The notes beneath the pieces are model-generated. The model worked only from the letters and a program-made list of their open reading frames with translations, did no database searches and was not told where the DNA came from. A DNA stretch of 64,000 nucleotides, from NCBI GenBank assembly GCA_964628445.1, contig CAZVOP010000001.1, positions 27,355-91,354 on the forward strand. The letters are read 5' to 3'. This document shows, piece after piece, positions 3,993 through 23,591 of the stretch (position 1 is its first letter; the number at the start of each line of letters is the position of its first letter). This DNA comes from an uncultured Pseudobdellovibrionaceae bacterium. Lineage in GTDB: Bacteria; Bdellovibrionota; Bdellovibrionia; Bdellovibrionales; UBA1609. Both the position numbers and the translations under genes were made by a program.

Positions 3993-6020
3993 GTGAACCG
4001 ATTTTTGGCTTTAGCATTTCTTGCGGTTTTTTCTTTCCCGAGCCTTGCCGATAAAGATTTTTCCTCGTGGCGCAAGCATTCCAGCGGTGAGCTGATACAA
4101 GAGACGACGGCACTGGCGGGCGGAAGCCAAGGCACCATCGGCTTGCTTATTCATCTCAAAGACAATTGGCATACCTACTGGGTAAATCCCGGCGATTCAG
4201 GCACGGCGATTCGCTTAAGTTTTAAGAATTCCCACGGTGTAAAGGTGAAACAGATTTTGCACCCGCTTCCCCACCGCATTGTGGCTGGTCCGTTGGTTTC
4301 ATTCGGTTACTCCGAAGACGTGCTGCTTCCCATCGAAGTGGAACTCGCGGACACTTTGCGCCCCGGTGACAAAGTGGATTTTGAGGTCGAGGCCGAATGG
4401 TTGGTTTGTGAAGATGTTTGCATCCCGGCCTTTGACACCTTCAAGCTCAGTGTGCCGGTGGCGGCGCTTGACGACGTGAAGCCCTCGAATCATTTCGCAC
4501 TCTTTCAAAAGACACGCGCCGAATTGCCCAAAGTTCAGTCGTCGTTCCCGCATCTTGCGGCCGGCGATTCGACCGTTGAGCTCAAGGTGGGCGAGGCTAA
4601 GAACCTCGAGTTCGTCGATTTCTTTCCGTTTCGGAATTCCGGCGTCACCAATGCCAAAGCCGAAGTCATGGGCAAAGATCCGCTCCATCTGCGTTTTGAG
4701 AAGTCGTCGGTGGCTCAAGTCAATGCGGATCGGGTCGGCGTGCTTGTGCTGCGCGATCCCGCTTCCGGAAAAACGGAAAGTTGGCAGTTGGGCGATTCGG
4801 GTTGGACCTTTGAGGAGGCGGGAAGTGCTCCGAAGCACAGTCTTTGGTGGATGCTATTGTCGGCATTCCTTGGCGGCTTGATTTTAAATCTCATGCCTTG
4901 CGTGTTTCCGATTTTGTCGTTGAAATTTTTAAGTCTGATGAAGCTTACCGATTCGCAAAGCGGGGAAGTGCGCCGGCAGAATTTCGCCTACGTGGCGGGT
5001 GTATTGCTGTCCTTCCTTTTGGTCGCTTCGCTGCTTTCAGCCTTGAGGTCCGCGGGCCAATTTATCGGCTGGGGATTTCAGCTTCAGTCGCCGGTTTTTA
5101 TCAGTTTGCTCAGCTGGTTGTTTTTTGTTCTGTCGCTGAATTTGCTCGGGCTTTTTGAAATTGATTTTTTGAATACGAATTTAGGGAACCGTCTGACCCG
5201 CGCGGGCGGCCTTACCGGATCGTTCTTTACCGGTGTCCTTGCGGTAGTGGTGGCTTCGCCGTGCACGGCACCGTTTATGGGTGTGGCGCTGGGATTTGGG
5301 CTTACGCAATCGAATTGGATTTTACTCACTATATTTTTGACCTTGGGACTTGGACTGGCCTTTCCTTATTTGTTATTCGCGATTTTTCCGCATGCTATCC
5401 GCATTTTGCCTAAGCCGGGCAAGTGGATGAATACTTTGAAACAGGTCATGGCGTTCCCGCTTTTGCTGACGACTTTGTGGCTGATTTGGGTGCTTGGCCA
5501 AGTGCGCGGAATGAATGCGGTGATGGTTGTGCTGGGCGGATGCCTCACGCTTGCTTTTGCGATTTGGTTTGCGAAAAAAGAGCGGAAGTTCTCCAAAGTG
5601 GTCACCGCTCTGATTCTTTTGGGTGGACTGGTGTTTATTTACCGCTCGGAACAACAAGTGAACACGCTGATTGAGAGCGACGTTTGGAAACCTTATTCCG
5701 AGGCGACGATGGAGAGCATTAAAGGAAAAAATATTTTCGTCAATATGACCGCGGATTGGTGCCTGACCTGCAAGGTGAATGAGCGTTTGGTTTTCAATGA
5801 CAAAGATGTGATGGCGCTGCTTGAGGCTAAAGGCGTTATCCTGGTTAAGGGCGATTGGACGCAGCGAAATGAACAAATCACACGCTTCTTAAGCCGCTTT
5901 GATCGGGTAGGGGTTCCTTTTTATGTGCTTTATTCACCTCAGCATCCGCAAGGTCAGATATTGCCTGAAGTCCTAACCAAAAGTACCTTTATGGAGTTGA
6001 TACAAAAAGAGTATCCTTAA
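3993..6020 (+). CDS. dsbD: Thiol:disulfide interchange protein, DsbD family (N-terminal periplasmic domain, CcdA-like TM core, C-terminal thioredoxin)
   Basis: Signal peptide. TM-core Cys motifs LNLMPCVFPILSLK and VASPCTAPF. C-terminal TADWCLTCK (CxxC). AGGAG precedes the GTG start. Confidence 0.8.
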   Translation: MNRFLALAFLAVFSFPSLADKDFSSWRKHSSGELIQETTALAGGSQGTIGLLIHLKDNWHTYWVNPGDSGTAIRLSFKNSHGVKVKQILHPLPHRIVAGPLVSFGYSEDVLLPIEVELADTLRPGDKVDFEVEAEWLVCEDVCIPAFDTFKLSVPVAALDDVKPSNHFALFQKTRAELPKVQSSFPHLAAGDSTVELKVGEAKNLEFVDFFPFRNSGVTNAKAEVMGKDPLHLRFEKSSVAQVNADRVGVLVLRDPASGKTESWQLGDSGWTFEEAGSAPKHSLWWMLLSAFLGGLILNLMPCVFPILSLKFLSLMKLTDSQSGEVRRQNFAYVAGVLLSFLLVASLLSALRSAGQFIGWGFQLQSPVFISLLSWLFFVLSLNLLGLFEIDFLNTNLGNRLTRAGGLTGSFFTGVLAVVVASPCTAPFMGVALGFGLTQSNWILLTIFLTLGLGLAFPYLLFAIFPHAIRILPKPGKWMNTLKQVMAFPLLLTTLWLIWVLGQVRGMNAVMVVLGGCLTLAFAIWFAKKERKFSKVVTALILLGGLVFIYRSEQQVNTLIESDVWKPYSEATMESIKGKNIFVNMTADWCLTCKVNERLVFNDKDVMALLEAKGVILVKGDWTQRNEQITRFLSRFDRVGVPFYVLYSPQHPQGQILPEVLTKSTFMELIQKEYP

Positions 6021-6050
6021 CCGGATATTCTTAATATCCAGGAGGTTTTT

Positions 6051-6647
6051 ATGGTCCGTCATCTGTTGATCGCTTTCAGTCTGATTCTATGCGTACCGGC
6101 CTTCGCGGCGCCGAAAAACAATGAGCCGGCTCCTGATTTCAGCGCGAAGGGTGCGGACGGCAAAGACTATAAACTCAGTCAGTTTAAAGGAAAGACCGTC
6201 GTTCTTGAGTGGTTCAATAAGGATTGCCCTTATGTGCGCAAACACTATGACTCAAAAAATATGCAGAAGCTGCAAGAGCAAGCCAAGGCTAAAGGCACAG
6301 TTTGGTTGACGATCATTTCCTCGGCTGCCGGCAAAGAAGGTCATATGGATCCCGCGGCCGCGCAAAAAGTTTATACGGCGAAGGGGATGAGCAGCACGGC
6401 GCTTTTGCTTGATGACAAAGGTTTGATCGCAACCGCTTATGCCGCAAAAACAACTCCGCATATGTTCGTGATCGATAAGACCGGTAAACTTGTTTATCAA
6501 GGTGCAATCGATGACCGGCCAAGCGCTTCGGAGAAGAGCTTGGCGGGTGCGCAGAATTACGTGAGCCAAGCCTTAGCGGCTCTCGATGCGGGTGCCGTGC
6601 CTAAGCCGGACAGCACCGCTCCGTATGGATGCTCGGTTAAATACTGA
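6051..6647 (+). CDS. Periplasmic thioredoxin-fold (redoxin/AhpC-TSA-like) protein
   Basis: Signal peptide (CVPAFAAP). KTVVLEWFNKDCPYVRKHY sits at the position of a Trx-fold active site but carries only one Cys (CPYV). AGGAGG RBS. Lies immediately after the dsbD-like gene. Confidence 0.6.
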   Translation: MVRHLLIAFSLILCVPAFAAPKNNEPAPDFSAKGADGKDYKLSQFKGKTVVLEWFNKDCPYVRKHYDSKNMQKLQEQAKAKGTVWLTIISSAAGKEGHMDPAAAQKVYTAKGMSSTALLLDDKGLIATAYAAKTTPHMFVIDKTGKLVYQGAIDDRPSASEKSLAGAQNYVSQALAALDAGAVPKPDSTAPYGCSVKY

Positions 6648-8208: not shown

Positions 8209-9243
8209 ATGATTTTGTCATTCTTGTTCGCTTCGTTGACGGTCCATGCCGCACCTCTTAAGAAAATTGAACTTACGCCTCGGCAAAGTGCGGCCATCAA
8301 AGAATACAACCGCAAGTTAAGCCAGCAGCCGTCGACATTTGCTGCACGGCCTGCACCGCTGAAACCTTTTTCGGAAGTGGAAGAGGCCGGCTATCTGTTT
8401 TTCAGCGCCGACACCAATTTCGATTCGGGGCCGGGCAAAAAGATCATGGCGAGGAATCTTCCTGACGGCGTAACGATCGTCATTTTCGCGGAAACCGGCG
8501 ACGATATCGCGGAAATTCGCCGTCAATATCAAGGACTCATCGATACGGCGCGCCTAAAGATTGTCGAGATCAGCGGTGCCAGCCGTGGATTTTGGGCGCG
8601 CGACGGGCTTCCCGTTCCGGTATGGGGCGCCGATAATGGAATGGAATTGGTGGACGCCCGATACTATCACCGCTTTGAGCCCGACGACACGATGGCCAAT
8701 TGGTTTCACAGTTTTTTGCGCAAGCATCAGTTCTATTTCGAGGGCGGAAACTTCATGACCAACGATAAAGGCGATTGCATCACGGTCGACAATGACCGCA
8801 GTAGCGAGATCCCCGAATCCTTGTTCCGCGAGCAATACGGATGCAAGCGGGTCATTCGTTTGCCCTTTGAAAAAGGCATCGGCCATGTCGACGAATCGGT
8901 CCGCTTCTTAAGTTCAAATGTGGTCGTGACCGATAGTCCTACTTATGCGCAGACATTAAAGGGTCTGGGCTTTGACGTGCGCATGCTTCCGCGGCCCGAC
9001 AATCCATACGAAACTTACGTGAACGCTTTGTTGGTCAACGGGACGGTTTTTGTGCCGGTATTTAACGAGCGCAATGACCAAAAGGCTTTGGACGTTTACC
9101 GTGCTGCGGGTCTAAAGGTGTTCGCGATTGAATCCTCGAGCCTTTCCAATGACGGCTTGGGATCCATTCATTGCATCACGATGACCTATCCGAAGGTGCC
9201 CTTCCAACAACTGATGGAATCCTTAGGCGGCCGCGAGCTTTGA
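8209..9243 (+). CDS. Secreted agmatine deiminase / Porphyromonas-type peptidylarginine deiminase family enzyme
   Basis: Signal peptide. Motifs WARDGLP, FEGGNFMTN, GHVDE, YVNALLVNGTVFVP and the catalytic-Cys motif GSIHCITM. Confidence 0.7.
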   Translation: MILSFLFASLTVHAAPLKKIELTPRQSAAIKEYNRKLSQQPSTFAARPAPLKPFSEVEEAGYLFFSADTNFDSGPGKKIMARNLPDGVTIVIFAETGDDIAEIRRQYQGLIDTARLKIVEISGASRGFWARDGLPVPVWGADNGMELVDARYYHRFEPDDTMANWFHSFLRKHQFYFEGGNFMTNDKGDCITVDNDRSSEIPESLFREQYGCKRVIRLPFEKGIGHVDESVRFLSSNVVVTDSPTYAQTLKGLGFDVRMLPRPDNPYETYVNALLVNGTVFVPVFNERNDQKALDVYRAAGLKVFAIESSSLSNDGLGSIHCITMTYPKVPFQQLMESLGGREL

Positions 9244-12978: not shown

Positions 12979-12992
12979 GTTCACGCGCTACC

Positions 12993-13022
12993 CAAAGCTT
13001 CTTGTCCAGACAAGAGGCTTTG
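12993..13022. repeat. Palindromic element, copy A (12-bp stem, 6-nt loop) at the ahpD/cytochrome convergent junction
   Basis: caaagcttcttg-tccaga-caagaggctttg. Nearly identical to 58882-58911. One T-G pair, which is a wobble only in plus-strand RNA. Confidence 0.6.
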
Positions 13023-13024
13023 CA

Positions 13025-13945
13025 TTATCGGCTGAACGAGAAATAAATCGCGAGTGCGGAGATATCTCGATCGCTTAGCGTGCGCGCGAACTCATTCATC
13101 AATTCGTTTTGCCGCTCACGTTTCCGGTAATAGAGCAGTTGATTGATTAGATACTGTTCCGATTGGCCGGCAAGGGCCGGCAAGACCGGGTCGGCGGCGG
13201 AGGGATCCATGTGGCATGAAACGCAATTCAATTGGGTTTTCATGGCCAATAATTTTCCCTGCTCAAACAATAACTGCTCAATGATCGTCATCGTCTTGGG
13301 CGCCTCATCGGGCGCCAAGCCTTTTTGTGCGGCAAAGTAGCGGGCCGTTTCTTCAAGCTCCTCGTCGGTTAAGTCGGAAACTATATCGTTCATTTGATCG
13401 GTGGGATCGATTCTTCTTCTCCACTTGAAAGCTTGCAGCTGATTCACTAAATAGCCGTAATTTTGGCCGTTAATCCTGGGGATCTTCGGCTGCGCTTGCG
13501 CCGTGGGACCTTGCGGTCCATGGCACTGGATACATCGCTGCACCAGAAGTTCGGTTTTAGAAACGAGGGTGGACGTCGGCGCCGAGGCCACGGATTTCTC
13601 CGGTGCGCCCGATTGGGCCCAGGCGGCAAGGAGTTCGCGGTCCGAGTCGGTGATCGCCGCGGCTTGCGGGCTTCCCGGAGGAGGCATCGACTTTTCTTCG
13701 TAAACCTTGCGCTCCAAAGTCCCGTTGAGAGCGTAGTTACGCGCTTGCGAGAAATCCAGCCAGTCCGGACCGGAGCGCGAGGGATGGCAGGCGGCGCAAT
13801 TTTTAGCGAACACCGGGCGCGCTTGCTCGTAACTAACGCGCCCCAGTTTCGTCCGCGCGCCGTCGGCCGGCCGGTGAGGCCCATTAAAAGAGCATGATGT
13901 GAGCGTAGTCATAAATAAAATAAGTATATTACGGAACATTTTCAC
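13025..13945 (-). CDS. Triheme c-type cytochrome lipoprotein (N-terminal monoheme domain plus c4-like diheme)
   Basis: Lipobox LTSC. Three CXXCH (CAACH, CIQCH, CVSCH). c4-like motifs PRINGQNYGYLVNQLQAF and PALAGQSEQYLINQLLYY. Confidence 0.75.
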   Translation of the reverse strand: MKMFRNILILFMTTLTSCSFNGPHRPADGARTKLGRVSYEQARPVFAKNCAACHPSRSGPDWLDFSQARNYALNGTLERKVYEEKSMPPPGSPQAAAITDSDRELLAAWAQSGAPEKSVASAPTSTLVSKTELLVQRCIQCHGPQGPTAQAQPKIPRINGQNYGYLVNQLQAFKWRRRIDPTDQMNDIVSDLTDEELEETARYFAAQKGLAPDEAPKTMTIIEQLLFEQGKLLAMKTQLNCVSCHMDPSAADPVLPALAGQSEQYLINQLLYYRKRERQNELMNEFARTLSDRDISALAIYFSFSR

Positions 13946-14801
13946 CGCTCCTGATCGCGGGTAGTGACATCATATAGCTGACCAGTGCCGCGCGGTCGTC
14001 CGGCGTCAGCGAAGAGGTATTGTTGATCACTTGCGCCATCTCGGCGGAAGGATATTTTCCTTGCGGATTACGACCGCTCAGAAGAAAGCGTTCCCAGTCT
14101 TTGCCGCTCCAGCTTCCACGCCCTGTGATCACGTCGCGAGTGAGGTTTGGGGCGAGACGCCCATTGATGGGGACTGCCGATCCGGCCATCCATTTTGAAA
14201 GTTCAAGCGCGCCCGTCCATGCATTGCGCGGGGTATGGCATTCGGCGCAATGGGCAAGGGCTTCGGCGATGTAGGCGCCGCGGTTCCACTCGGCCGACTT
14301 TGTAGGGTCGGAAATGGCGGGCCCTTCTTGTAAGAAAATGCCCTGCCAAATAAAAAGTCCCCAGCGCTGGTTGTAGGGATAGCTGAGTTGTTGCGGGTGA
14401 TTTTCTTTATATACGGGTCGTTGAGAAACCAGGTATGCCCATATTTTTTCAAGATCCGGATCGGTGATTTTGGTGTAAGACCGGTAGGGGAAAGCGGGGT
14501 AATAATATTGCCCTCCAGGCGAAACGCCATCGCGCATGGCGCGTTGAAATTTTGGAAAGTCCCATCGCCCGATGCCGGTATCGCCGTCGGGGGTGATGTT
14601 CGGCGTATAGAATGCGCCGAAGGGAGTGACTAACTTTAGGCCCCCGCCGAAGGGCGCATCGGAATGCGGCGAGCGGCAATCGGCGCAGCCCGCGATCTTC
14701 ACCAAATAAGCGCCTTCATCAAGATCGTCAGCGGCGGAAAAATGCGTCGGCGCGGCGGCGATCAAAAACATAAAAATGAAAAGATGGCCGGGTCTGATCA
14801 T
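13929..14801 (-). CDS. Dehydrogenase-type diheme-like cytochrome c; first haem motif is CXXCR
   Basis: Signal peptide. GCADCRSPH (no His after the second Cys). FYTPNITPDGDTGIGRW. Second motif CAECHTP is intact. ATGA overlap with the upstream gene. Confidence 0.7.
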   Translation of the reverse strand: MIRPGHLFIFMFLIAAAPTHFSAADDLDEGAYLVKIAGCADCRSPHSDAPFGGGLKLVTPFGAFYTPNITPDGDTGIGRWDFPKFQRAMRDGVSPGGQYYYPAFPYRSYTKITDPDLEKIWAYLVSQRPVYKENHPQQLSYPYNQRWGLFIWQGIFLQEGPAISDPTKSAEWNRGAYIAEALAHCAECHTPRNAWTGALELSKWMAGSAVPINGRLAPNLTRDVITGRGSWSGKDWERFLLSGRNPQGKYPSAEMAQVINNTSSLTPDDRAALVSYMMSLPAIRSGENVP

Positions 14802-15094
14802 TTAGTCTTGCCCATTTGAGAATAGTGTACGGCAAGATCTTCGATATCTTGCGTGGACAACATTTTCGACACCGGCGTCATGAGCGGGTCGATGCGAACG
14901 CCGTCGCGAAAGGCTATAAGTTGTTTCACCAGGTAATCATGTTTTTGGCCGGCCAAATTGGGCCATAATTCGTTGGGACTGATGCCTGCTTCCCCGTGGC
15001 AAGCGTTGCATGTGACCGACTTTTGCTTTGCCGATGTCTCATCCGCGAAGGCCGCATGAGGAGCGAAGGTCAGGATAACAAAAATGAATTTCAT
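14798..15094 (-). CDS. Monoheme cytochrome c (c552/c553 class I)
   Basis: Signal peptide, CNACHG, and PNLAGQKHDYLVKQLIAFRDG, typical of c4-half/c55x cytochromes. Confidence 0.8.
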   Translation of the reverse strand: MKFIFVILTFAPHAAFADETSAKQKSVTCNACHGEAGISPNELWPNLAGQKHDYLVKQLIAFRDGVRIDPLMTPVSKMLSTQDIEDLAVHYSQMGKTK

Positions 15095-15106
15095 GCACTC
15101 GTCCTT

Positions 15107-16303
15107 TCAAAAAGTAACCTGCAAAAATCCGAAGCTTGCATTTTGCGCGGCCTCCGAATGGCGCGCGGCTTCCGTCGGATGCGTCGCTCGGGCGAGTTCG
15201 GTGCGCGCTTGTATAACGGTATTAGGGCCAATGTACCAACGGATGCCTAAGCCATGCCGGTCATAAATATCGGCGGGATAATCCCGGTCCGGCCGGAGAA
15301 AATCATATTTATACAGCAAAATAAATTTCGAGGTAAATGCATACTCCAACCAGGCCAGCCATGTGGACGATTCGGCGGTCCTTATTGAACTCACATAACT
15401 TTGATCCGCGGCAAAGCCTTGTCCCAAGTGATCGTTCCAATTGCGTGCCCTGACCGTTTCGACTTTGATGGAAAGAGGAAGATTGTCATCGGTCCAGCGC
15501 GCCAGTGAAGCGACCGCATAGAGCGAGAGAGCTTGGCGCGACTCTTTCGACGGCCTGCGGTCATAGTGGCTTAGAGAAGTTCCAAGCATTATCGGGCCCA
15601 ACATGTAGCGCAGATTAAGGGTCGCGCCGAAGCGTTCGGCATTTCCATTATTCAAATTCGCTCCGCTATGCCGGTCGCCATTCACTAGTGCAAGATCGTA
15701 ATGCAGGTCTTCAGAGGGTTGGCCTGAAAGCATCGCGCCCGTGTCGAAACTAAACCATTCGGTTTGTGTTTGTATCCGGGTGTAGGTGCGATGCTCGTCG
15801 GTGACGATGCCGAAAGGCGTTCGGAAGCGGCCGACGAGCAGCGATTCGAACCAGTGCGGCCGCTCATCGCGATTATGAAATTGAAATAGCGCATAGGTAT
15901 CGCGATAGGGGCCGGCGGAAAAACCGGCGATGTTGTGCTCAAGAACCAAGTGGATGCGCTGGGCTTCGTCGACCGCCACATGACCAAAGACGGAGCCTGA
16001 CATGATGCCGGCGCCGTCTTTGCTCGATCCCGCTTTCTCGGGATAATAAAAGAGCGCGCGGAAGTCCGCACCGACGTAATCTTGCGCTAAGAGCGGATTG
16101 ATTTTGAATCCATGCGCCCCGAACAATTTGCCGTATGTGTTTCGCGGGCCGCCGCCAGCGGGACTGAGATGGCAAGCCGTGCATCGGATGATGTTGTAGC
16201 GTGCTGAATATTCGGGATAAGCCCATGCAGAAAGGGGCCTTAGAGTTGCGAGACAAAACAATAGGGTAAACAACCATATTCGCGTCACTGATGTGCTGTA
16301 CAC
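15107..16303 (-). CDS. Fused monoheme cytochrome c / outer-membrane beta-barrel (Cyc2-like architecture)
   Basis: Signal peptide (...LRPLSAWA). Single CXXCH (RCTACH, nt 16169-16183) near the mature N-terminus. About 350 aa of aromatic/Gly-rich alternating strands ending ...FGFLQVTF (OMP C-terminal Phe). Confidence 0.6.
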   Translation of the reverse strand: MYSTSVTRIWLFTLLFCLATLRPLSAWAYPEYSARYNIIRCTACHLSPAGGGPRNTYGKLFGAHGFKINPLLAQDYVGADFRALFYYPEKAGSSKDGAGIMSGSVFGHVAVDEAQRIHLVLEHNIAGFSAGPYRDTYALFQFHNRDERPHWFESLLVGRFRTPFGIVTDEHRTYTRIQTQTEWFSFDTGAMLSGQPSEDLHYDLALVNGDRHSGANLNNGNAERFGATLNLRYMLGPIMLGTSLSHYDRRPSKESRQALSLYAVASLARWTDDNLPLSIKVETVRARNWNDHLGQGFAADQSYVSSIRTAESSTWLAWLEYAFTSKFILLYKYDFLRPDRDYPADIYDRHGLGIRWYIGPNTVIQARTELARATHPTEAARHSEAAQNASFGFLQVTF

Positions 16304-16397
16304 CCGTTGGCAAGCGGGGCCAAGAGGTGCCGAAATGGGGCTGTAGATCTTACTGAAGAATTGTCACGTCGCCAATAAACGTAATTCGTTTGTCATT

Positions 16398-16877
16398 TTA
16401 ATTGAATAGAGCACTGATGGCTTCGATGGTTTGCTCTATACGCTTTGAAGAAACGGGCGCCACAAAAATGGTGTCGTCGCCTGCAATCGTTCCTAAAATT
16501 CCTTCTGGCTTCGTTTGGTCCAATTGTCTGGCCACTAACGAGGCTGACCCCGGAGTGGTGTTGATCACGATCAGGGAGCCATTGTGCTGAATGTTCACAA
16601 GTAAGCCGCCGAAGCTATTGCCGGGCAGAATGGCCGGCAAAGACATTTCGTCAGGGAGGCGGTAAACGATGCGGCCGGTGGCATCTTGCCCCTTAACTGC
16701 GCCAAGCCTGCGTAGATCGCGTGAGATCGTGCTTTGCGTGACTCTGAATTTTTGCCGTCCAAGCTCTTCGACCAACTCTTCCTGAGTTGATGTTAAGCCC
16801 GCGCTCAAAAGCTTTCGCAAGGAGTTCAGGCGTTCACTGGCGAGCGACGGTGATCTAGATGACATGCGAATACTCAA
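16398..16877 (-). CDS. argR: Arginine repressor ArgR
   Basis: Winged-helix region QEELVEELGRQKFRVTQSTISRDLRRLG. C-terminal oligomerisation/arginine motif GTIAGDDTIFV. Confidence 0.85.
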   Translation of the reverse strand: MSIRMSSRSPSLASERLNSLRKLLSAGLTSTQEELVEELGRQKFRVTQSTISRDLRRLGAVKGQDATGRIVYRLPDEMSLPAILPGNSFGGLLVNIQHNGSLIVINTTPGSASLVARQLDQTKPEGILGTIAGDDTIFVAPVSSKRIEQTIEAISALFN

Positions 16878-17820
16878 GCTCCTTCACTTTCATTGCCTGT
16901 GAGCGGAACAATCCGATCATCAAAGCCTTTTGCGCGTGCAGGCGGTTTTCCGATTGTTGAAAGATCGCCGAATTCGGATGCTCGACCATTTCCGCGGTGA
17001 TCTCTTGCTCCTTTATCATTGGGAGACAATGCATGACGATGGCGTTGGGGGCGGCATGTGAATACAGTTCACGATTGATCTGATAGCCGCTGAACGCCGC
17101 AAGGCGCACTTCATTTTCTTTTTCAAAACCCATGCTGGTCCATACGTCCGTGTATAGGACGTGCGCGCCACGCGCGGCAAGCTGCGGAGTTTTAAATTTG
17201 CGGATTTTCGCGCCCGTCTTCATGGCACGCAAACGGGCCCGCTGCAGAATATCTTCATCGGGTTGAAAACCCTCGGGACAGGCATAGTGCACGTCGACGC
17301 CTGCATAGGGCGCAAGCAGCAACAGCGAATGCAAAACATTGTTGCCGTCGCCGATATAGCACAGCTTCAACCCTTCCAGTTTTCCGAAGCGCTGATACAC
17401 GGTGAGCAAGTCGGCGATGGCTTGGCAGGGGTGATGAGAGTCCGAGAGTCCGTTGATCACCGGGATTGTCGCCTTGCTCACCATACGCTCTAAAGTTTCG
17501 TGCGCGAAGGTTCGGACCATCAGGCCGTGTACCATGCCTTGCAAAACGCGAATGCTGTCTTCGGGATCCTCGGTTTTCTTCTGCGAGCCGAGCAGTTCGA
17601 AAACATGGCCGCCTAATTCCTGTACGCCGACGGTAAAACTGACTCGCGTGCGTAAAGAAGGCTTGTCGAACATCAACGCCATCGTTTTGCCGTTTAAATA
17701 ATTGGTCACGGCCTCACCGCGGTGCTTACGCAGGTTTTCAGCGCCCTTGATCAAGGCCAGCAATTCGTTTTGCGAAAGCTCCTCACCGGTGAGGAAGTGC
17801 ATCGATTTAAATTGAAGCAT
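16855..17820 (-). CDS. argF: Ornithine carbamoyltransferase
   Basis: Motifs SLRTRVSF, DSHHPCQ, DVWTSMG and HCLP. Start could be the downstream Met (17802). Confidence 0.85.
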   Translation of the reverse strand: MLQFKSMHFLTGEELSQNELLALIKGAENLRKHRGEAVTNYLNGKTMALMFDKPSLRTRVSFTVGVQELGGHVFELLGSQKKTEDPEDSIRVLQGMVHGLMVRTFAHETLERMVSKATIPVINGLSDSHHPCQAIADLLTVYQRFGKLEGLKLCYIGDGNNVLHSLLLLAPYAGVDVHYACPEGFQPDEDILQRARLRAMKTGAKIRKFKTPQLAARGAHVLYTDVWTSMGFEKENEVRLAAFSGYQINRELYSHAAPNAIVMHCLPMIKEQEITAEMVEHPNSAIFQQSENRLHAQKALMIGLFRSQAMKVKELEYSHVI

Positions 17821-18640
17821 CTTCGAACACCTTCATTCTCGACGGCTCCACAAAAACCGGCGGCGCTGCGCACACCGTACCGATGGATTCGTCGTTAACC
17901 GCTTGCAGGGCATCGCCGCCGTTCATCACACGCACCAAAGGAATGCCGTGTTTGCGCGCATGCAAAATGGATCTCGCCTTGGTCATCATTCCGCCTTGGA
18001 TCGTACCGTCTTCGATAAGCGCCTGCAGTTCTACGGTCGAGATTTCCGAGATCAAATTTTTCTTGGCGTCCAAGATTCCCTTTTGATCGGTAAGAAAAAT
18101 CAACTGCTGAACGTTCAATGCGCCGGCCAAGCGGGTCGCCGCCCAGTCGGCGTTGATATTGAACGCTTCGCCGTTATGGCCGATGCCGATCGGGGCCATG
18201 ATTGGGATCGGCGCCGACGGTAAGCGCATCAGCACTTCAACCCAAGCGCAATTCACGGCTTGGATCTCCCCAACTTGGCCGAGTTCTTCGGAGGCCCGCG
18301 CGCACATCAAAGTGTGATTGTCGGTTCCCGAAAATCCCACCACGGGCAGTCCCGATCCACCCATATGGCGCACCAATTTGCGATTCACTTCGCCGCACAA
18401 AGTGGATTCGATGACGTCCATCATCGCGGGCGTGGTGACTCTTTGGCCGTCGATAAAATTCCAAGTCAGACCTTGGCGGGTCAAGGCCGCATTGATCGCG
18501 GGCCCGCCGCCGTGAACGACGATCACTTTGTGCCCGTTCCTGCGGAAACGCTGAATGCTTTGGGTTACCGTTTCCAGCACCGATTCGTCCTTGAGAGCGG
18601 CGCCGCCTAATTTGATCAGTACACGTTGTTGGTTGTTCAT
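17807..18640 (-). CDS. argB: Acetylglutamate kinase
   Basis: Motifs VLIKLGGAAL and VVHGGGP. ORF trimmed to ATG 18640, which overlaps the argJ stop (ATGA). Confidence 0.85.
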   Translation of the reverse strand: MNNQQRVLIKLGGAALKDESVLETVTQSIQRFRRNGHKVIVVHGGGPAINAALTRQGLTWNFIDGQRVTTPAMMDVIESTLCGEVNRKLVRHMGGSGLPVVGFSGTDNHTLMCARASEELGQVGEIQAVNCAWVEVLMRLPSAPIPIMAPIGIGHNGEAFNINADWAATRLAGALNVQQLIFLTDQKGILDAKKNLISEISTVELQALIEDGTIQGGMMTKARSILHARKHGIPLVRVMNGGDALQAVNDESIGTVCAAPPVFVEPSRMKVFEDASI

Positions 18641-19836
18641 GAGTACTCCGTATTGATGTCGACGTATTTCCTTGAGAGATCGCAGCCCCATGCTGTCGCA
18701 CTCTCCACACCGGACTTCAAATCGATTTCGATCTTCACTCTGTTTTGTTTTAGCTTCTGCCTGACTTCATCGCGGTCAAACTTTAGGGGTGCCCCGTTGT
18801 CGAACAGCAAAACGCCTTGCAGCTTGAGCGACATTTTCGCCAGACATGCCGCCGGCACTTGTTCTTGGCCAAGACGAGAGAGGATCCGGCCCCAGTTGGG
18901 ATCTTCACCGTGCATCGCGGTCTTAATCAACGGGCTCATGGTCACGCCGCGCGCGGCCCGTCTGGCCAAGGTCAAAGCGGGGCTTCCGGTCAGCGAAACT
19001 TCCAACAGCTTGGTTGCACCTTCCCCGTCGGCGGCGATGGCTTGCGCGAGCACTTGCGCCACTTGGGTTAACGCTTCTTTAAATGTTTGATAATCGTCGT
19101 CGCTCACCAACTCGACACCGGCCGCGCCACTGGCCATCAAGAACGCACAATCGTTGGTCGATGAATCGCCGTCGACGCTGATCATGTTGAAGCTGACGTC
19201 GGTGGCTTTTGTGATCAATTCTTGCGCGACGCCGGGGGTAAGCTTGAGATCGGTGAGCAAATAGCCGAGCATCGTTGCCATATTGGGATGGATCATGCCC
19301 GAGCCCTTGCAGATGCCGGTGATGCGAACGCTTCCTTGCGACAGTTTCACTTCCGTCGAGACGGTTTTGGGAACTAAGTCGGTGGTGAGAATCGCGGTCG
19401 CGAAACTTTCCGCCACGTCGGTTTGCGCCCTTTGCACAAGATCGGGAATTGCGGGCAAGATCTTTTCAACGTCAAGATGCACGCCGATCACGCCGGTGCT
19501 CGCGACCAAAACTTGGCTCATGTCGACGCCGAGTTCTTTGGCCACGGCATGGACCATGAGATTGTTGTTCTCAATCCCGAGCGCTCCGGTCGCGGCGTTG
19601 GCTTGGCCGGAATTGGTGACGATCGCGCGCACCTTATCGCTTGGCAAATGATGGCGCGAGTGCATGACCGGCGCGGCCTTGGCTTCGTTCAATGTGAAAA
19701 CGCCGGCGGCGACGCAATCCTTCTCGGTAAAAATAAGGCCGAGGTCGGGACGGTATCTGCGCACGCCGCAGTTCACGCCGCTTGCGAAAAATCCCAAAGG
19801 CAAAGGAGTCCTATTGAGTCCTGGTCCGGGTGCCAT
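18637..19836 (-). CDS. argJ: Bifunctional ornithine acetyltransferase / N-acetylglutamate synthase
   Basis: Autoprocessing motif HPNMATMLGYLLTD. Full-length ArgJ collinearity. Confidence 0.85.
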   Translation of the reverse strand: MAPGPGLNRTPLPLGFFASGVNCGVRRYRPDLGLIFTEKDCVAAGVFTLNEAKAAPVMHSRHHLPSDKVRAIVTNSGQANAATGALGIENNNLMVHAVAKELGVDMSQVLVASTGVIGVHLDVEKILPAIPDLVQRAQTDVAESFATAILTTDLVPKTVSTEVKLSQGSVRITGICKGSGMIHPNMATMLGYLLTDLKLTPGVAQELITKATDVSFNMISVDGDSSTNDCAFLMASGAAGVELVSDDDYQTFKEALTQVAQVLAQAIAADGEGATKLLEVSLTGSPALTLARRAARGVTMSPLIKTAMHGEDPNWGRILSRLGQEQVPAACLAKMSLKLQGVLLFDNGAPLKFDRDEVRQKLKQNRVKIEIDLKSGVESATAWGCDLSRKYVDINTEYS

Positions 19837-19841
19837 CTTGG

Positions 19842-20912
19842 TTACCCTTTCTCGTCTGTTGTCAGACTGAAGCTCGCGGGCAGATCCAGCATGCGGTTTA
19901 AATTCTCCACCGCTTGGCTGGCCGCCCCCTTGAGCAGGTTATCAATGACGCTGAACACGTAGAGCTTGTTCCCCACGAGTTCATAAGAGATGTGAGTGAA
20001 AGGCGTGTTCACCACACCGGTGAGGCGAGCGTATTTGCTCGCGTCACGGCCGTGGCGGACCAAGGGATAGTTTTTATATTCTTTCGTGAAGGCGTTTTCG
20101 ATCTGGTCAAGCGACGTCGCCGTCGACGTGGCAAAGATAGCCACTTCGATGCCGCGCTTGATGGGCAACAAATGAGTCACGAAATGCGGATCAACGACGG
20201 CGCCGCTGGCCGCTTCCACCGCTTCGATAATTTCGGGAAGGTGTTGATGCTTGCCCACTTTATAGGGGGGGCAATCGCCGTCGACTTCCGAAAAGAGCAA
20301 ATTCTCATTCGCTCTTTTGCCCGCGCCGGTCGTGCCCGATTTTGCATCGATGGCGATATTTTTGGGGTCGATCAAATTGTTTTTCAATAAAGGAATCAGC
20401 GCGAGGCTTATGGCCGTCGCGTAACAACCGGGGTTCGCGATGAGTCGCGTCGAACGGCTCAGCGGACCGCAAAACGGGACCAATCCGTACTCGGCTTCGG
20501 CTGCATATTGGGGCGCGGTTTGCATAAAACCGTACCACCGATTCATATCGTTTTTCTTTAACCTGAAAGCCCCGGAAAGATCGATGACCTTTTTGCCCGC
20601 CGCCAAAATTTGCGGTGCGAGCTTCATAGAAACTTCCGCCGGCGTGGCCAGGAAAACAACGTCGGTCAAATTTGTCATCAAGGCAGATTCCGCCAAACAC
20701 TGAACGGCAGCGGCTTTGCGCTCAAATGTAAAATCCGAAAGCTTGAATTCTTGCGTGGCGAAACAATGCGTAAGGTTCACGCTCGGGTGCTTTATCAACA
20801 GCTGCGCCAGCTCCATGCCGCTGTAACCGCGTGCTCCAACGATGGAAACGGAAGGGGTATCAGTTGGCGAACTGTTCGAATAATTATGCACCATATATGC
20901 ATATTTAGGCAT
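19842..20912 (-). CDS. argC: N-acetyl-gamma-glutamyl-phosphate reductase
   Basis: Rossmann N-terminus VSIVGARGYSG. Catalytic ANPGCYAT. Confidence 0.85.
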   Translation of the reverse strand: MPKYAYMVHNYSNSSPTDTPSVSIVGARGYSGMELAQLLIKHPSVNLTHCFATQEFKLSDFTFERKAAAVQCLAESALMTNLTDVVFLATPAEVSMKLAPQILAAGKKVIDLSGAFRLKKNDMNRWYGFMQTAPQYAAEAEYGLVPFCGPLSRSTRLIANPGCYATAISLALIPLLKNNLIDPKNIAIDAKSGTTGAGKRANENLLFSEVDGDCPPYKVGKHQHLPEIIEAVEAASGAVVDPHFVTHLLPIKRGIEVAIFATSTATSLDQIENAFTKEYKNYPLVRHGRDASKYARLTGVVNTPFTHISYELVGNKLYVFSVIDNLLKGAASQAVENLNRMLDLPASFSLTTDEKG

Positions 20913-20939
20913 GCCTCCTTACATGTCAATAATAATTTG

Positions 20940-20977
20940 ACTGCATAATTATTCCCATGCATGAATCGAAGAATCAC
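20940..20977. promoter_or_regulatory. Candidate tandem ARG boxes (ArgR operator) in the argC/argG divergent region
   Basis: TGCAT-AATT-ATTCC (20942-20955) matches TGAAT-wwww-ATTCA at 8/10 conserved positions. A second, weaker box TGAAT-cgaag-AATCA starts 20 bp later (20962-20976). Confidence 0.35.
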
Positions 20978-20988
20978 TGGAGGGGAAC

Positions 20989-22212
20989 TTGAAAGACCAA
21001 AAAGCACAAAACGATAAAGTGTTGCTCGTGTACAGCGGAGGCTTGGACACTTCCGTTTGCATTCCGCTGATGCGCGAAGAGTATGGCTACAAAGAAGTGA
21101 TCACGGTCACGGTCGACGTTGGTCAAGAAACGAGCGACATCGCTCAAGCCGAAGAAAAAGCAAAAATATTAAAGACCACGCACTTCACGGTCGACGCCAA
21201 AGAAGAATTTGTCGAGAAATTCTGCTGGCCGTCGGTCCAAGCCAACGGCGATTACCAAGGCTATCCGATGTCGACTTCGATCGCGCGTCCGCTGATCGCG
21301 GCGAAAGCGGTTGAGGTCGCGCAAAAACTGGGCGTAACCTCGTTCGCGCACGGCTGCACCGGCAAAGGCAACGATCAATATAGAATTGAATTCGGAATTC
21401 GCTCGCTGATGCCCGAAGCCACGATTCACGCGCCCGTCCGCGAGCGCAACATGACCCGCAGTTGGGAAATCGAATACGCGAAGGCGAAGAACATCCCGGT
21501 TCAGCAATCGATCACCAAGATTTGGTCCATCGATGAAAATCTTTGGGGCCGGTCCATCGAGGGCGGCCGTTTGGAAGAGCCCGACTTCGCTCCGCCCGAA
21601 GAGATTTTCCAATGGACGAAGTCCATCGATCAGACCGCGGCCAGCGCGGATACGGTCACGATCCGGTTTAAAAACGGCGTGCCGGTGGCCTTGAACGACA
21701 AAACCGCTTCGCCGGCCTCGCTCGTGATTCAACTGAATGCCTTGGCCGGTAAGCATGGCATCGGCCGCGTGGACATTATGGAAGACCGCATGATGGGACT
21801 TAAAGTTCGCGAGAACTACGAGTGCCCCGGGTCGACCGTATTTTTGAAAGCGCACAAAGCGCTCGAAAATTTAGTTCTTACGCGCGATGAAATCCGTTTC
21901 AAATCTTTGGTGGATCAAGAGTGGTCGAAACTCGCTTACGAGGGTTTGTGGTGGGATCCCTATAAAGAAGATCTCGAGGCCTTTATCCAGTCGACGCAAA
22001 AGCGCGTGACCGGCGACGTAAATTTGAAACTTTATAAAGGCCAAGTGACGGTGACGGGACGCAAATCGACTTGGGCTTTGTACTCGGAAGATCTCGCCTC
22101 GTTCGACACGACCACATTCGATCAGCGTGAGAGTACCGGCTCGGTAAAAAATTTCGGTATGCAGGCGCGCATGTTCGGCCAGCTGCTTAAAAAGCATCAG
22201 AAGGATTTGTAA
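20989..22212 (+). CDS. argG: Argininosuccinate synthase
   Basis: VYSGGLDTS ATP-pyrophosphatase motif. TTG start preceded by GGAGGGG. Confidence 0.9.
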   Translation: MKDQKAQNDKVLLVYSGGLDTSVCIPLMREEYGYKEVITVTVDVGQETSDIAQAEEKAKILKTTHFTVDAKEEFVEKFCWPSVQANGDYQGYPMSTSIARPLIAAKAVEVAQKLGVTSFAHGCTGKGNDQYRIEFGIRSLMPEATIHAPVRERNMTRSWEIEYAKAKNIPVQQSITKIWSIDENLWGRSIEGGRLEEPDFAPPEEIFQWTKSIDQTAASADTVTIRFKNGVPVALNDKTASPASLVIQLNALAGKHGIGRVDIMEDRMMGLKVRENYECPGSTVFLKAHKALENLVLTRDEIRFKSLVDQEWSKLAYEGLWWDPYKEDLEAFIQSTQKRVTGDVNLKLYKGQVTVTGRKSTWALYSEDLASFDTTTFDQRESTGSVKNFGMQARMFGQLLKKHQKDL

Positions 22213-22214
22213 CC

Positions 22215-23591
22215 ATGGCACTTTGGGGCGGCCGCTTTGAGAAAGAAACCGATGACGCCGTGAAGGCCTTTTCTTCATCGATTGCGACCGACTCCCAGTT
22301 ATGGGCCACGGATATTCGTGGCTCCATGGCCCATGCGAGCATGCTTTTTAAGCGGGGCATTTTAAAAAAAGAAGATAATGAGGCCATCCAGCGCGGGCTG
22401 CACGCCATCTTTGAGGAAATCAAAAGCGGCGCTTGGACCTTTGATCCCGAAGCCGAAGACGTGCATGGCGAGATCGAGCAGCGTTTGTTCGAGAAGATCG
22501 GCGATGCGGCTAAGCGCATGCACACCGCAAGATCGAGAAACGATCAGGTGGGGACCAGCACTCGGCTGTTCACAGCCGAGCAACTCCAGAGTTTAAAGAT
22601 CGAACTGAAAGACCTGCAAAAGGAATTATTCCGGCAAGCCGAAAAGCACACACAAACTATTTTGCCGGGCATGACTCATCTGCAACATGCACAGCCGGTT
22701 TCACTCGCTCATCATTTGCTGGCGTATTTTTGGATGTTTCAAAGAGACGTCGAACGCATCGAACAGAGTTTACCGCGCGTTTTGTCGCTGCCGTTGGGAT
22801 CCGCCGCCTTAGCGGGAACGGGTTTTCCTATCGATCGCGAAGCGACCAAAGCCGAACTCGGCTTTCATAAAGTGAGCGAAAATTCCTTGGACGCGGTTTC
22901 CGACCGCGATTATGTCATCGAATTTTTATCCGACGCCTCCATGATCATGATGCACCTTTCGCGTTTCGCCGAAGAATTGATTTTATGGAGCACGCCGGAA
23001 TTCGGCTTCGTCGAATTGGGTGATGAGGTCACCACCGGCTCATCCATCATGCCGCAGAAAAAAAATCCCGACGTCGCCGAACTGATCCGCGGCCGGGTCG
23101 GCCGCGTGTACGGCGCACTGATGGGGGCGCTTACGATGATGAAGGGGCTGCCGCTCTCCTACAACCGCGACATGCAAGAGGACAAAATCCATTTATTCGA
23201 AGGCTTGCGGACCACGCGTTCATGTGTGCGCTTGATGAACTTGATGTTGACCAAGGCGAATTGGCAAACACCGCGGATGGAAGCGGCCTTAAAGGGCGAT
23301 TTCTCCAACGCGACGGATGTGGCCGACGATCTCGTGGAAAAAGGCCTCCCGTTTCGCGAGGCGCATGAGGTGGTGGGGCATTTGGTTCAGTGGTGCATTA
23401 AGAATAAAAAGCATCTTGAGGACCTGTCGGTCGCGGAGTTGAAGAAGCAGCATCCTTTGCTCGATGAGCGGACTCGCCAGAAGCTTCCGCACCGGGCGGT
23501 GATGGAGGCGCGTAAATCCGCGGGTGGCGCTTCGCCGGAGGCTGTTCGTGTTCAGCTGAGCCAAGCTGAAGCAGCGTTGGCCCATTTTTAA
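22215..23591 (+). CDS. argH: Argininosuccinate lyase
   Basis: Fumarate-lyase signature GSSIMPQKKNPD. N-terminal LWGGRF. Confidence 0.9.
   Translation: MALWGGRFEKETDDAVKAFSSSIATDSQLWATDIRGSMAHASMLFKRGILKKEDNEAIQRGLHAIFEEIKSGAWTFDPEAEDVHGEIEQRLFEKIGDAAKRMHTARSRNDQVGTSTRLFTAEQLQSLKIELKDLQKELFRQAEKHTQTILPGMTHLQHAQPVSLAHHLLAYFWMFQRDVERIEQSLPRVLSLPLGSAALAGTGFPIDREATKAELGFHKVSENSLDAVSDRDYVIEFLSDASMIMMHLSRFAEELILWSTPEFGFVELGDEVTTGSSIMPQKKNPDVAELIRGRVGRVYGALMGALTMMKGLPLSYNRDMQEDKIHLFEGLRTTRSCVRLMNLMLTKANWQTPRMEAALKGDFSNATDVADDLVEKGLPFREAHEVVGHLVQWCIKNKKHLEDLSVAELKKQHPLLDERTRQKLPHRAVMEARKSAGGASPEAVRVQLSQAEAALAHF

Follow-up and report, generated by a model that had tools for sequence, protein, structure and literature searches.

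A Cyc2-like cytochrome-porin family of uncultured Bdellovibrionota, encoded with periplasmic c-type cytochromes

Introduction

Fused cytochrome-porins are the main genetic marker for neutrophilic iron oxidation in metagenomes. A gene that appears to encode such a protein heads a cluster of four cytochrome genes in a 64,000-nucleotide stretch of DNA (the window) from an uncultured Pseudobdellovibrionaceae bacterium (GenBank assembly GCA_964628445.1, contig CAZVOP010000001.1, positions 27,355 to 91,354 of the forward strand). A first interpretation made from the DNA alone (the sequence-only reading) had likened the cluster to the outer-membrane iron-oxidation module formed by Cyc2 and its c4-type partner Cyc1. 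This raises the question of whether the protein belongs to the Cyc2 family, and can hence be taken as a sign of iron oxidation. Alternatively, it may come from a separate lineage with a similar architecture, and the electrons it handles may have another source or another destination.

Here, we compare the predicted protein with its relatives, with solved structures and with a reference set of Cyc2 proteins, and we examine which genes accompany it in other genomes. We class it as a Cyc2-like cytochrome-porin from a family that is distinct and specific to the Bdellovibrionota, and not as a proven member of Cyc2. The family keeps its single haem site without exception and is commonly encoded beside c-type cytochromes, and we consider it likely that these proteins together carry electrons across the outer membrane.

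Results

A cluster of four cytochrome genes

According to the list of open reading frames (ORFs) and the sequence itself, four ORFs run head to tail on the minus strand across positions 13025-16303, with a 12-nt gap after the porin gene, followed by a 4-nt ATGA overlap and a 17-nt overlap (Table 1); coordinates, strand and spacing all agree with the sequence-only reading. We counted CXXCH, the attachment motif for haem c, in every reading frame in the window that spans 60 codons or more. Six motifs were found, all in these four ORFs, barring a lone additional frame of 69 codons that looks spurious, and this concentration is far from what chance would produce.

The porin gene encodes a protein of 398 amino acids (aa) with the three features previously read from it, namely a signal peptide, a single CXXCH (CTACH, 13 residues into the mature chain) and a C-terminal FGFLQVTF. 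In the source genome the gene call is P0001, a protein of 339 aa that starts at an internal TTG (nt 16124-16126), and this start drops both the signal peptide and the haem site. Because the 59 residues upstream of it are conserved in homologues, we conclude that the 398-aa reading is the correct one; the long ORF also has an alternative GTG start at codon 6. Searches of Pfam and NCBIfam with the 398-aa protein gave no match, and a sequence search of the Protein Data Bank (PDB) returned noise only.

Table 1. Positions of the four cytochrome genes, the principal sites within them and the regions at either end of the cluster
Feature	Position	Strand	Basis
Fused monohaem cytochrome and 16-strand outer-membrane porin, 398 aa, predicted	15107..16303	-	ORF, AlphaFold2, Foldseek
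Signal peptide of the 398-aa protein, aa 1-28, ending SAWA, then YPEY	16220..16303	-	By inspection; aligns with homologue N-termini
Single haem c attachment motif of the 398-aa protein, CTACH, aa 41-45	16169..16183	-	Sequence; invariant in relatives
Family signature PFGIVTDEHRTYT, aa 163-175; long loop joining strands 5 and 6, at the porin L3 position	15779..15817	-	Alignment, DSSP
C-terminal strand FGFLQVTF, resembling the outer-membrane beta-signal	15110..15133	-	Forms model strand 16 (aa 389-397)
Periplasmic monohaem class I cytochrome c, 98 aa, CNACH, c552 or c4-half-domain type	14798..15094	-	PDB sequence matches
Two-domain cytochrome c, 290 aa, relative of dehydrogenase subunits	13929..14801	-	PDB matches
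Degenerate haem site 1 of the 290-aa cytochrome, CADCR	14673-14687	-	Sequence
Intact haem site 2 of the 290-aa cytochrome, CAECH	14235-14249	-	Sequence
Trihaem lipoprotein cytochrome c, 306 aa, last two domains c4-type	13025..13945	-	PDB matches, motifs
Spacer from argR stop to porin start, 94 nt; any cluster promoter expected here	16304..16397	-	Coordinates
Hairpin of 36 nt between the convergent ahpD and cytochrome genes, overlapping the cytochrome stop	12990..13025	-	Fold energy

A predicted 16-strand porin with an N-terminal haem motif

An AlphaFold2 model of the 398-aa protein, built from a 91-sequence alignment, contains 16 beta strands, with a predicted local distance difference test (pLDDT) score of 90.8 and a predicted template modelling (pTM) score of 0.87; residues 22-28 are the sole segment with pLDDT below 50. 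The connections between strands are short (2-10 residues) on one side of the barrel and long (up to 26) on the other, and since this matches the porin pattern, the N-terminal haem segment should face the periplasm. When we compared the model with PDB structures using Foldseek, 16-strand porins came out on top with a probability of 1.00, including OprP (2o4v, E-value 7.3e-11) and OprO (4rjw, 4.9e-10). The outer-membrane barrel that the sequence-only reading had suspected is therefore also what structure prediction returns, as a 16-strand porin with the CXXCH segment at its N terminus. The likeness to OprP/OprO, OmpF/OmpC, PorB and chitoporin is one of fold, and the top porin matches have TM-scores, normalised to the target, of 0.52-0.66. 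In other respects OprP/OprO and the general 16-strand porins differ from the 398-aa protein: they have no haem motif, identity is 9-15%, and the 398-aa protein has no Pfam porin match.

On the basis of the model, an N-terminal extension of about 48 residues precedes the barrel and would bind one haem c, which could be attached so as to lie inside the barrel or under it. The loop that carries the family signature may act as a constriction, and its cluster of acidic and His residues may provide a substrate (metal) site or a distal ligand to the haem. In concept this resembles MtrAB, MtoAB and PioAB, in which a beta-barrel carries haem-borne electrons across the outer membrane. In those systems, however, a 26-strand barrel surrounds a separate decahaem protein (PMC8406198), whereas here a single haem would be fused to a 16-strand barrel, and the scan of frames of at least 60 codons for CXXCH detected no multihaem MtrA-type gene in the window.

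A family of uncultured Bdellovibrionota

A single-sequence search with the 398-aa protein retrieved about 114 close cluster representatives, every one of them named 'hypothetical', and a profile search of 1.84 billion representatives gave 138 matches below 1e-30 and 1,783 below 1e-3. All 197 full-length relatives have exactly one CXXCH, located within the first 110 residues, and all 197 end in L, F, I, Y or M. The retention of one haem motif in every relative implies selection on the haem site. None of the outcomes that the sequence-only reading had named as grounds for rejecting it was encountered. The motif is also invariant in the 91-sequence alignment, and the family consensus around it reads ARPEYA[A/V]R-x5-CTACH-x-SP-x-GGGPRN-xx-GK-x-[F/Y]G. 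Within the barrel, the most conserved part is PFGxxTDEHRTYT (aa 163-175), where G165 and H171 are invariant in the same alignment and F164, T168, D169, E170, R172, T173 and Y174 are conserved in at least 90% of sequences.

We scanned GTDB, at one genome per species, with the pattern [PA]FG[IL]xTDEHR, which is absent from some members of the family. The scan found 62 loci, all of them in metagenome-assembled genomes (MAGs) of Bdellovibrionota and none in a cultured isolate, and the hosts were assigned to Bdellovibrionales, Pseudobdellovibrionaceae, Oligoflexia, and Bacteriovoracaceae or Halobacteriovoraceae. Two host genomes, JANYDD01 (Bdellovibrio sp.; loci L026 and L031) and JABJPQ01 (a Halobacteriovoraceae bacterium; L037 and L063), each contain two cytochrome-porin copies on different contigs. 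In the literature searched on Cyc2 and Bdellovibrio we found survey-level mentions of matches to iron or extracellular-electron-transfer genes in Bdellovibrionota only, and no description of this family. Judging from these sequence searches, the family is unannotated and known only from uncultured relatives of the predatory Bdellovibrio.

Partner cytochromes and their conservation

The 98-aa protein matches cytochrome c4 (6q2u, 3.7e-20) and cytochrome c552 (4o1w, 1.4e-18) in the PDB, in addition to giving weak Pfam cytochrome matches, and these results bear out its earlier description as a c552-type monohaem protein; it resembles half of a c4. The 306-aa protein has a lipobox (LTSC) and three haem motifs (CAACH, CIQCH and CVSCH), and its residues 136-303, which hold the last two of these, match 1h1o, 6q2u, 1etp and 8uf3 with E-values from 5.5e-16 to 8.6e-13. 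The best of these c4 matches is 1h1o_A (5.5e-16), which we take to be the Acidithiobacillus ferrooxidans c4, of the rus-operon Cyc1 type. The last two domains of the 306-aa protein therefore fit the definition of a c4, being class I haem domains in tandem with homology to c4 proteins of known structure, and the suspicion that they were c4-like proved well founded. Unlike cytochrome c4 and PdsA, however, the 306-aa protein carries a lipoprotein anchor as well as a further haem domain at its N terminus, and the NCBIfam model of the PdsA dihaem shuttle matched it at 3.2e-13 with 50 bits, against a cut-off of 330. From its sequence we would describe it as a c4-containing fusion and not as a plain c4.

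The 290-aa protein had been read as a dehydrogenase-type, dihaem-like cytochrome, and this description needs a single correction, at the first haem site. Its sequence aligns with haem domains 1 and 2 of the cytochrome subunits found in membrane-bound dehydrogenases of glucose, fructose and alcohol (8hdd_B, 9.4e-56; 7w2j_C; 8gy2_B). In contrast to these trihaem subunits, it lacks a third domain, its first haem site reads CADCR, leaving CAECH as the one intact site, and no dehydrogenase gene is adjacent. Four orthologues have CxxCH at site 1, and the difference amounts to a one-base change (CGC versus CAC); CADCR may mean that haem 1 has truly been lost, or it may reflect an error in sequencing or assembly.

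A motif count found CXXCH-bearing genes within 3 kb of the porin gene in 55 of the 62 species-level loci, and the usual pair is a monohaem protein of about 100 aa with a trihaem one of 300-375 aa, the latter often bearing a lipobox. Across 65 related loci, homologues of the 98-aa type are present in 45 and matches to the 306-aa type in 48, some of the latter being cross-hits via the shared c552/c4-type domain, while the 290-aa type is found only in the five closest loci. We conclude that the module kept across relatives is the porin together with one small class I cytochrome and one trihaem protein or lipoprotein. The sequence-only reading was right about the architecture, a fused cytochrome-porin with a c4-type partner, and the c4-type link is kept in relatives.

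Relatives with two haem motifs or none

More distant homologues of the family fall into two groups. The dihaem relatives (P0115-P0120), of about 393 aa, are homologous to the porin family (hhalign 99.7%, E 4e-25). The gene for one of these, P0116 (393 aa, with CTSCH as its second motif), lies between a cytochrome P460-domain gene and a gene for a 365-aa cytochrome (L001, 5230-8345) in a 5.8-Mb genome, a context suggesting that, in this clade, the protein may be tied to the chemistry of nitrogen oxides or hydroxylamine. The haem-less barrels (P0238-P0244) are homologous to the family barrel (E 4e-43), as compared with 1-8% against Cyc2 in hhalign. One of them, P0239, is encoded two genes downstream of a 138-aa lipoprotein monohaem cytochrome that carries CLKCH and is PSCyt1-like (L187, 1477-3741), an arrangement resembling the fused protein split in two. 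The barrel lineage as a whole seems to be devoted to working with redox partners, the haem being either part of the same protein or provided by a separate one.

Comparison with Cyc2

Keffer et al. (2021) define Cyc2 by a signal peptide, one CXXCH, a length of at least 365 aa and a 16-strand porin, with OprP and OprO as reported structural matches or modelling templates (PMC8406198). We found a signal peptide (by inspection), one N-terminal CXXCH and a length of 398 aa in our protein, and its model has a predicted 16-strand barrel similar to those of OprO and OprP. It shares with A. ferrooxidans Cyc2, Mariprofundus Cyc2PV-1 and Leptospirillum Cyt572 a CXXCH that lies roughly a dozen residues from the mature N terminus, a mature start of the form AxPx(F/Y)A and an overall size of about 400 aa, and in both cases a c4-type cytochrome is encoded alongside, as in the rus operon, where cyc2 is paired with cyc1.

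As a Cyc2 reference, we collected 83 full-length proteins from metagenome contigs using a degenerate DNA pattern for FAR[QK][TY]...CxxCH....PxL; this set is limited to TTC-Phe codons and to members with the strict motif, and it under-samples Cyc2 diversity. A tblastn search of plasmids, aimed at the Cyc2 homologues of Ralstonia and Burkholderia, returned noise only. Aligned to it with hhalign, the porin family scored 95.8% (E 6.5e-9) over the full length and 96.4% in a global alignment of the mature proteins, and alignment to the FARKY subtype of about 400 aa gave 95% over 202 columns. We regard these values of 95-96% as inflated, because CXXCH carries most of the profile similarity. A hidden Markov model (HMM) of the reference set gives weak matches to the N-terminal segment and the C-terminal barrel, and these are collinear in both proteins.

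Several observations weigh against membership in Cyc2 and against iron oxidation. Cyc2 has the signature AXPXFAR[Q/K][T/Y] before CXXCH and PXL four residues after it (PMC8406198), and neither is present here: the 398-aa protein reads AYPEYSARY-NIIR-C, and CH is followed by x-S-P-x-G-G-G-P-R-N, which places Pro at +3 and +8 and leaves no PxL at +5. Only AxPx(Y/F)A is common to Cyc2 and the family consensus ARPEYA[A/V]R(x5)C, and, aligned from AxP, the spacing from motif to Cys is 3 residues in the 83 Cyc2 proteins versus 4 here. With the Cyc2 HMM, the 398-aa protein scores 11 bits, and the highest scores in the family are 23 bits. The unrelated family of the 98-aa cytochrome scores 28 (72.8%) against the haem segment through CXXCH alone, and once the CXXCH columns are removed the flanks score 12.4, versus 8.3 +/- 2.2 for column shuffles (about 1.9 standard deviations). 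When only the barrels are aligned, hhalign against Cyc2 gives 6.5% or less, which is not significant. Pairwise scores against Cyc2 run from 5 to 54, compared with 11 +/- 6.5 for shuffled sequences and 60-130 between Cyc2 subtypes; the semi-global identities behind these alignments are degenerate (many 0%), and they serve as a score comparison only. As to context, Pfam identifies no oxidase, cupredoxin, bc1 or multihaem gene in the 64-kb window, which upholds the earlier remark that it holds no terminal oxidase, rusticyanin or multihaem MtrA-type partner, and the host MAGs come from many non-iron habitats. Even within the wider Cyc2 family, homologues outside cluster 1 are unsafe as predictors of iron oxidation (PMC8406198). 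The porin family also differs from Cyc2 in having its own loop motif, PFGxxTDEHRTYT, in coming from Bdellovibrionota MAGs only, and in having neither an oxidase nor a rusticyanin gene adjacent.

The shared architecture could have arisen by an independent fusion of a short haem segment to a porin lineage of the Bdellovibrionota, in which case the resemblance to Cyc2 would be convergent. We consider this a serious possibility, with the balance tilted somewhat against it. It would account for the poor alignment of the barrels (6.5% or less), for haem-less relatives that match the family barrel at E 4e-43 and Cyc2 at only 1-8%, for pairwise scores so close to those of shuffled sequences, and for the modest similarity of the flanks after CXXCH is masked (z of about 1.9). 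On the other hand, both families share the AxPx[F/Y]A start and, downstream, N-x-x-G-[K/R]-x-[F/Y]-x-x-x-G-[F/Y], their weak matches are collinear in the N-terminal segment and the C-terminal barrel, and full-length hhalign reaches 95-96%. In addition, the porin domains of Cyc2 are themselves poorly conserved (PMC8406198). Common ancestry with Cyc2 is weakly suggested by these sequence comparisons, and given that the signature motifs are absent and the proxy HMM gives 11 bits, the proposed membership in Cyc2, and hence iron oxidation, is not established.

Neighbouring genes and transcription signals

Upstream of the porin gene lies a complete arginine biosynthesis block (16398-23591), with argC-argJ-argB-argF-argR on the minus strand and argG-argH divergent. 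No match passed in a promoter consensus scan of the 94-nt spacer between argR and the porin gene, and promoter and terminator scans gave fewer matches than shuffled sequence. Read-through transcription from argR into the porin gene is possible; the cluster is probably an independent transcription unit, because the arg genes are not conserved neighbours. The hairpin at the other end of the cluster has a fold energy of -15.8 kcal/mol (z-score -1.55), lacks a T-run and is not statistically unusual, and it might, at most, be a shared terminator of ahpD and the cytochrome genes.

The sequence-only reading had also placed the cluster beside oxyR-ahpCD. Pfam confirms that genes for a LysR-type regulator, AhpC and AhpD are there, but they are not conserved as neighbours, since neither argR nor ahpCD is found near the porin gene in any of the 65 related loci. 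For this reason, we reject a functional link between the cluster and either oxyR-ahpCD or the arg operon.

A three-domain DsbD followed by a thioredoxin-fold redoxin is encoded at 3993-6647 on the plus strand, 7-10 kb from the cytochrome cluster; a DsbD and redoxin pair supplies reductant for cytochrome c maturation, and its presence speaks for the conduit discussed below. Near the arg genes, at 8209-9243 on the plus strand, is a gene for a protein of the Porphyromonas-type peptidyl-arginine/agmatine deiminase family. The region 27030-52000 is dense in secreted hydrolases, including an S1/P1 nuclease, a fusion of an M56 peptidase with SLT, two trypsin-like proteases, an astacin, a GH3 glycosidase and a second SLT transglycosylase, and this density fits a predatory Bdellovibrionota lifestyle.

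Discussion

We think it likely that this locus encodes an outer-membrane electron conduit, if both directions of flow are taken together. Its members would be the porin, the 98-aa monohaem cytochrome and the trihaem c4-like lipoprotein, joined in this sub-clade by the dehydrogenase-type cytochrome. We are evenly divided on whether it works in the full manner of Cyc2, with a small soluble reductant oxidised at the pore and electrons passing inward. In such a scheme the reductant, for which Fe(II) is the leading candidate, would enter the pore and reduce the haem; from there electrons would move to the c552/c4-type periplasmic carriers, and these would deliver them to the respiratory chain, ending at a terminal oxidase whose gene would lie outside this region of the genome. 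That the donor under this scheme is specifically Fe(II) strikes us as plausible but rather doubtful.

The same conduit could instead run outward or have a protective role, delivering electrons of respiratory or periplasmic origin to acceptors outside the cell or bound in the pore, such as Fe(III) chelates, quinones or humics, peroxide or other oxidants. A preprint reports matches to both oxidative and reductive extracellular-electron-transfer genes in Bdellovibrionia (10.1101/2022.03.26.485925). With only one haem in the pore, electrons could move either way; the 290-aa partner shows homology to cytochrome subunits that link periplasmic dehydrogenases to the quinone pool, and the cluster here adjoins genes for an OxyR-like LysR regulator, AhpC and AhpD. 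However, the ahpCD neighbourhood recurs in 0 of the 65 related loci and the 290-aa partner in five, the Pfam and NCBIfam searches revealed no peroxidase-type domain, and the partners that are conserved are of the c552/c4 type, carriers that typically pass electrons to oxidases. We therefore judge an outward or protective role to be unlikely, though worth keeping in view. It is also conceivable that electrons do not cross the membrane at all, and that the protein is mainly a solute porin whose haem acts as a plug, a gate or a redox sensor, or serves haem or iron uptake. The barrel has an ordinary 16-strand porin fold, and the existence of the haem-less relatives P0238-P0244 implies that it can function unfused. 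Yet the CXXCH is invariant in all 197 relatives, cytochrome partners are conserved, and even a haem-less relative (in L187) clusters with a separate cytochrome, which points to a redox role across the superfamily; we find a mainly solute-conducting porin quite improbable.

Beyond the conduit itself, we can imagine a redox-porin superfamily of uncultured Bdellovibrionota, independent of Cyc2, that exchanges electrons with extracellular or prey-derived redox compounds. This is a tentative idea that we would not favour at present, and the same caution applies to its scope, which would take in the monohaem-fused proteins, the dihaem proteins beside P460 and the haem-less barrels with a separate lipoprotein cytochrome.

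These results have consequences for how such genes are found. The family has the architecture of Cyc2 and its type of partner, yet it fails the Cyc2 motif filter, and surveys may therefore miss it or over-interpret it; a pipeline that demands both a haem motif and a length of 365 aa or more would pass over the 339-aa P0001 gene call. The D-E-H motif in the loop offers a concrete target for asking how a pore with one haem handles its substrate. The occurrence of the family in 62 species-level genomes of uncultured Bdellovibrionota suggests an unrecognised respiratory capability in the phylum. If the redox-porin superfamily is real, it would mean a lithotrophic or electron-scavenging supplement to predation in a phylum regarded as obligate predators.

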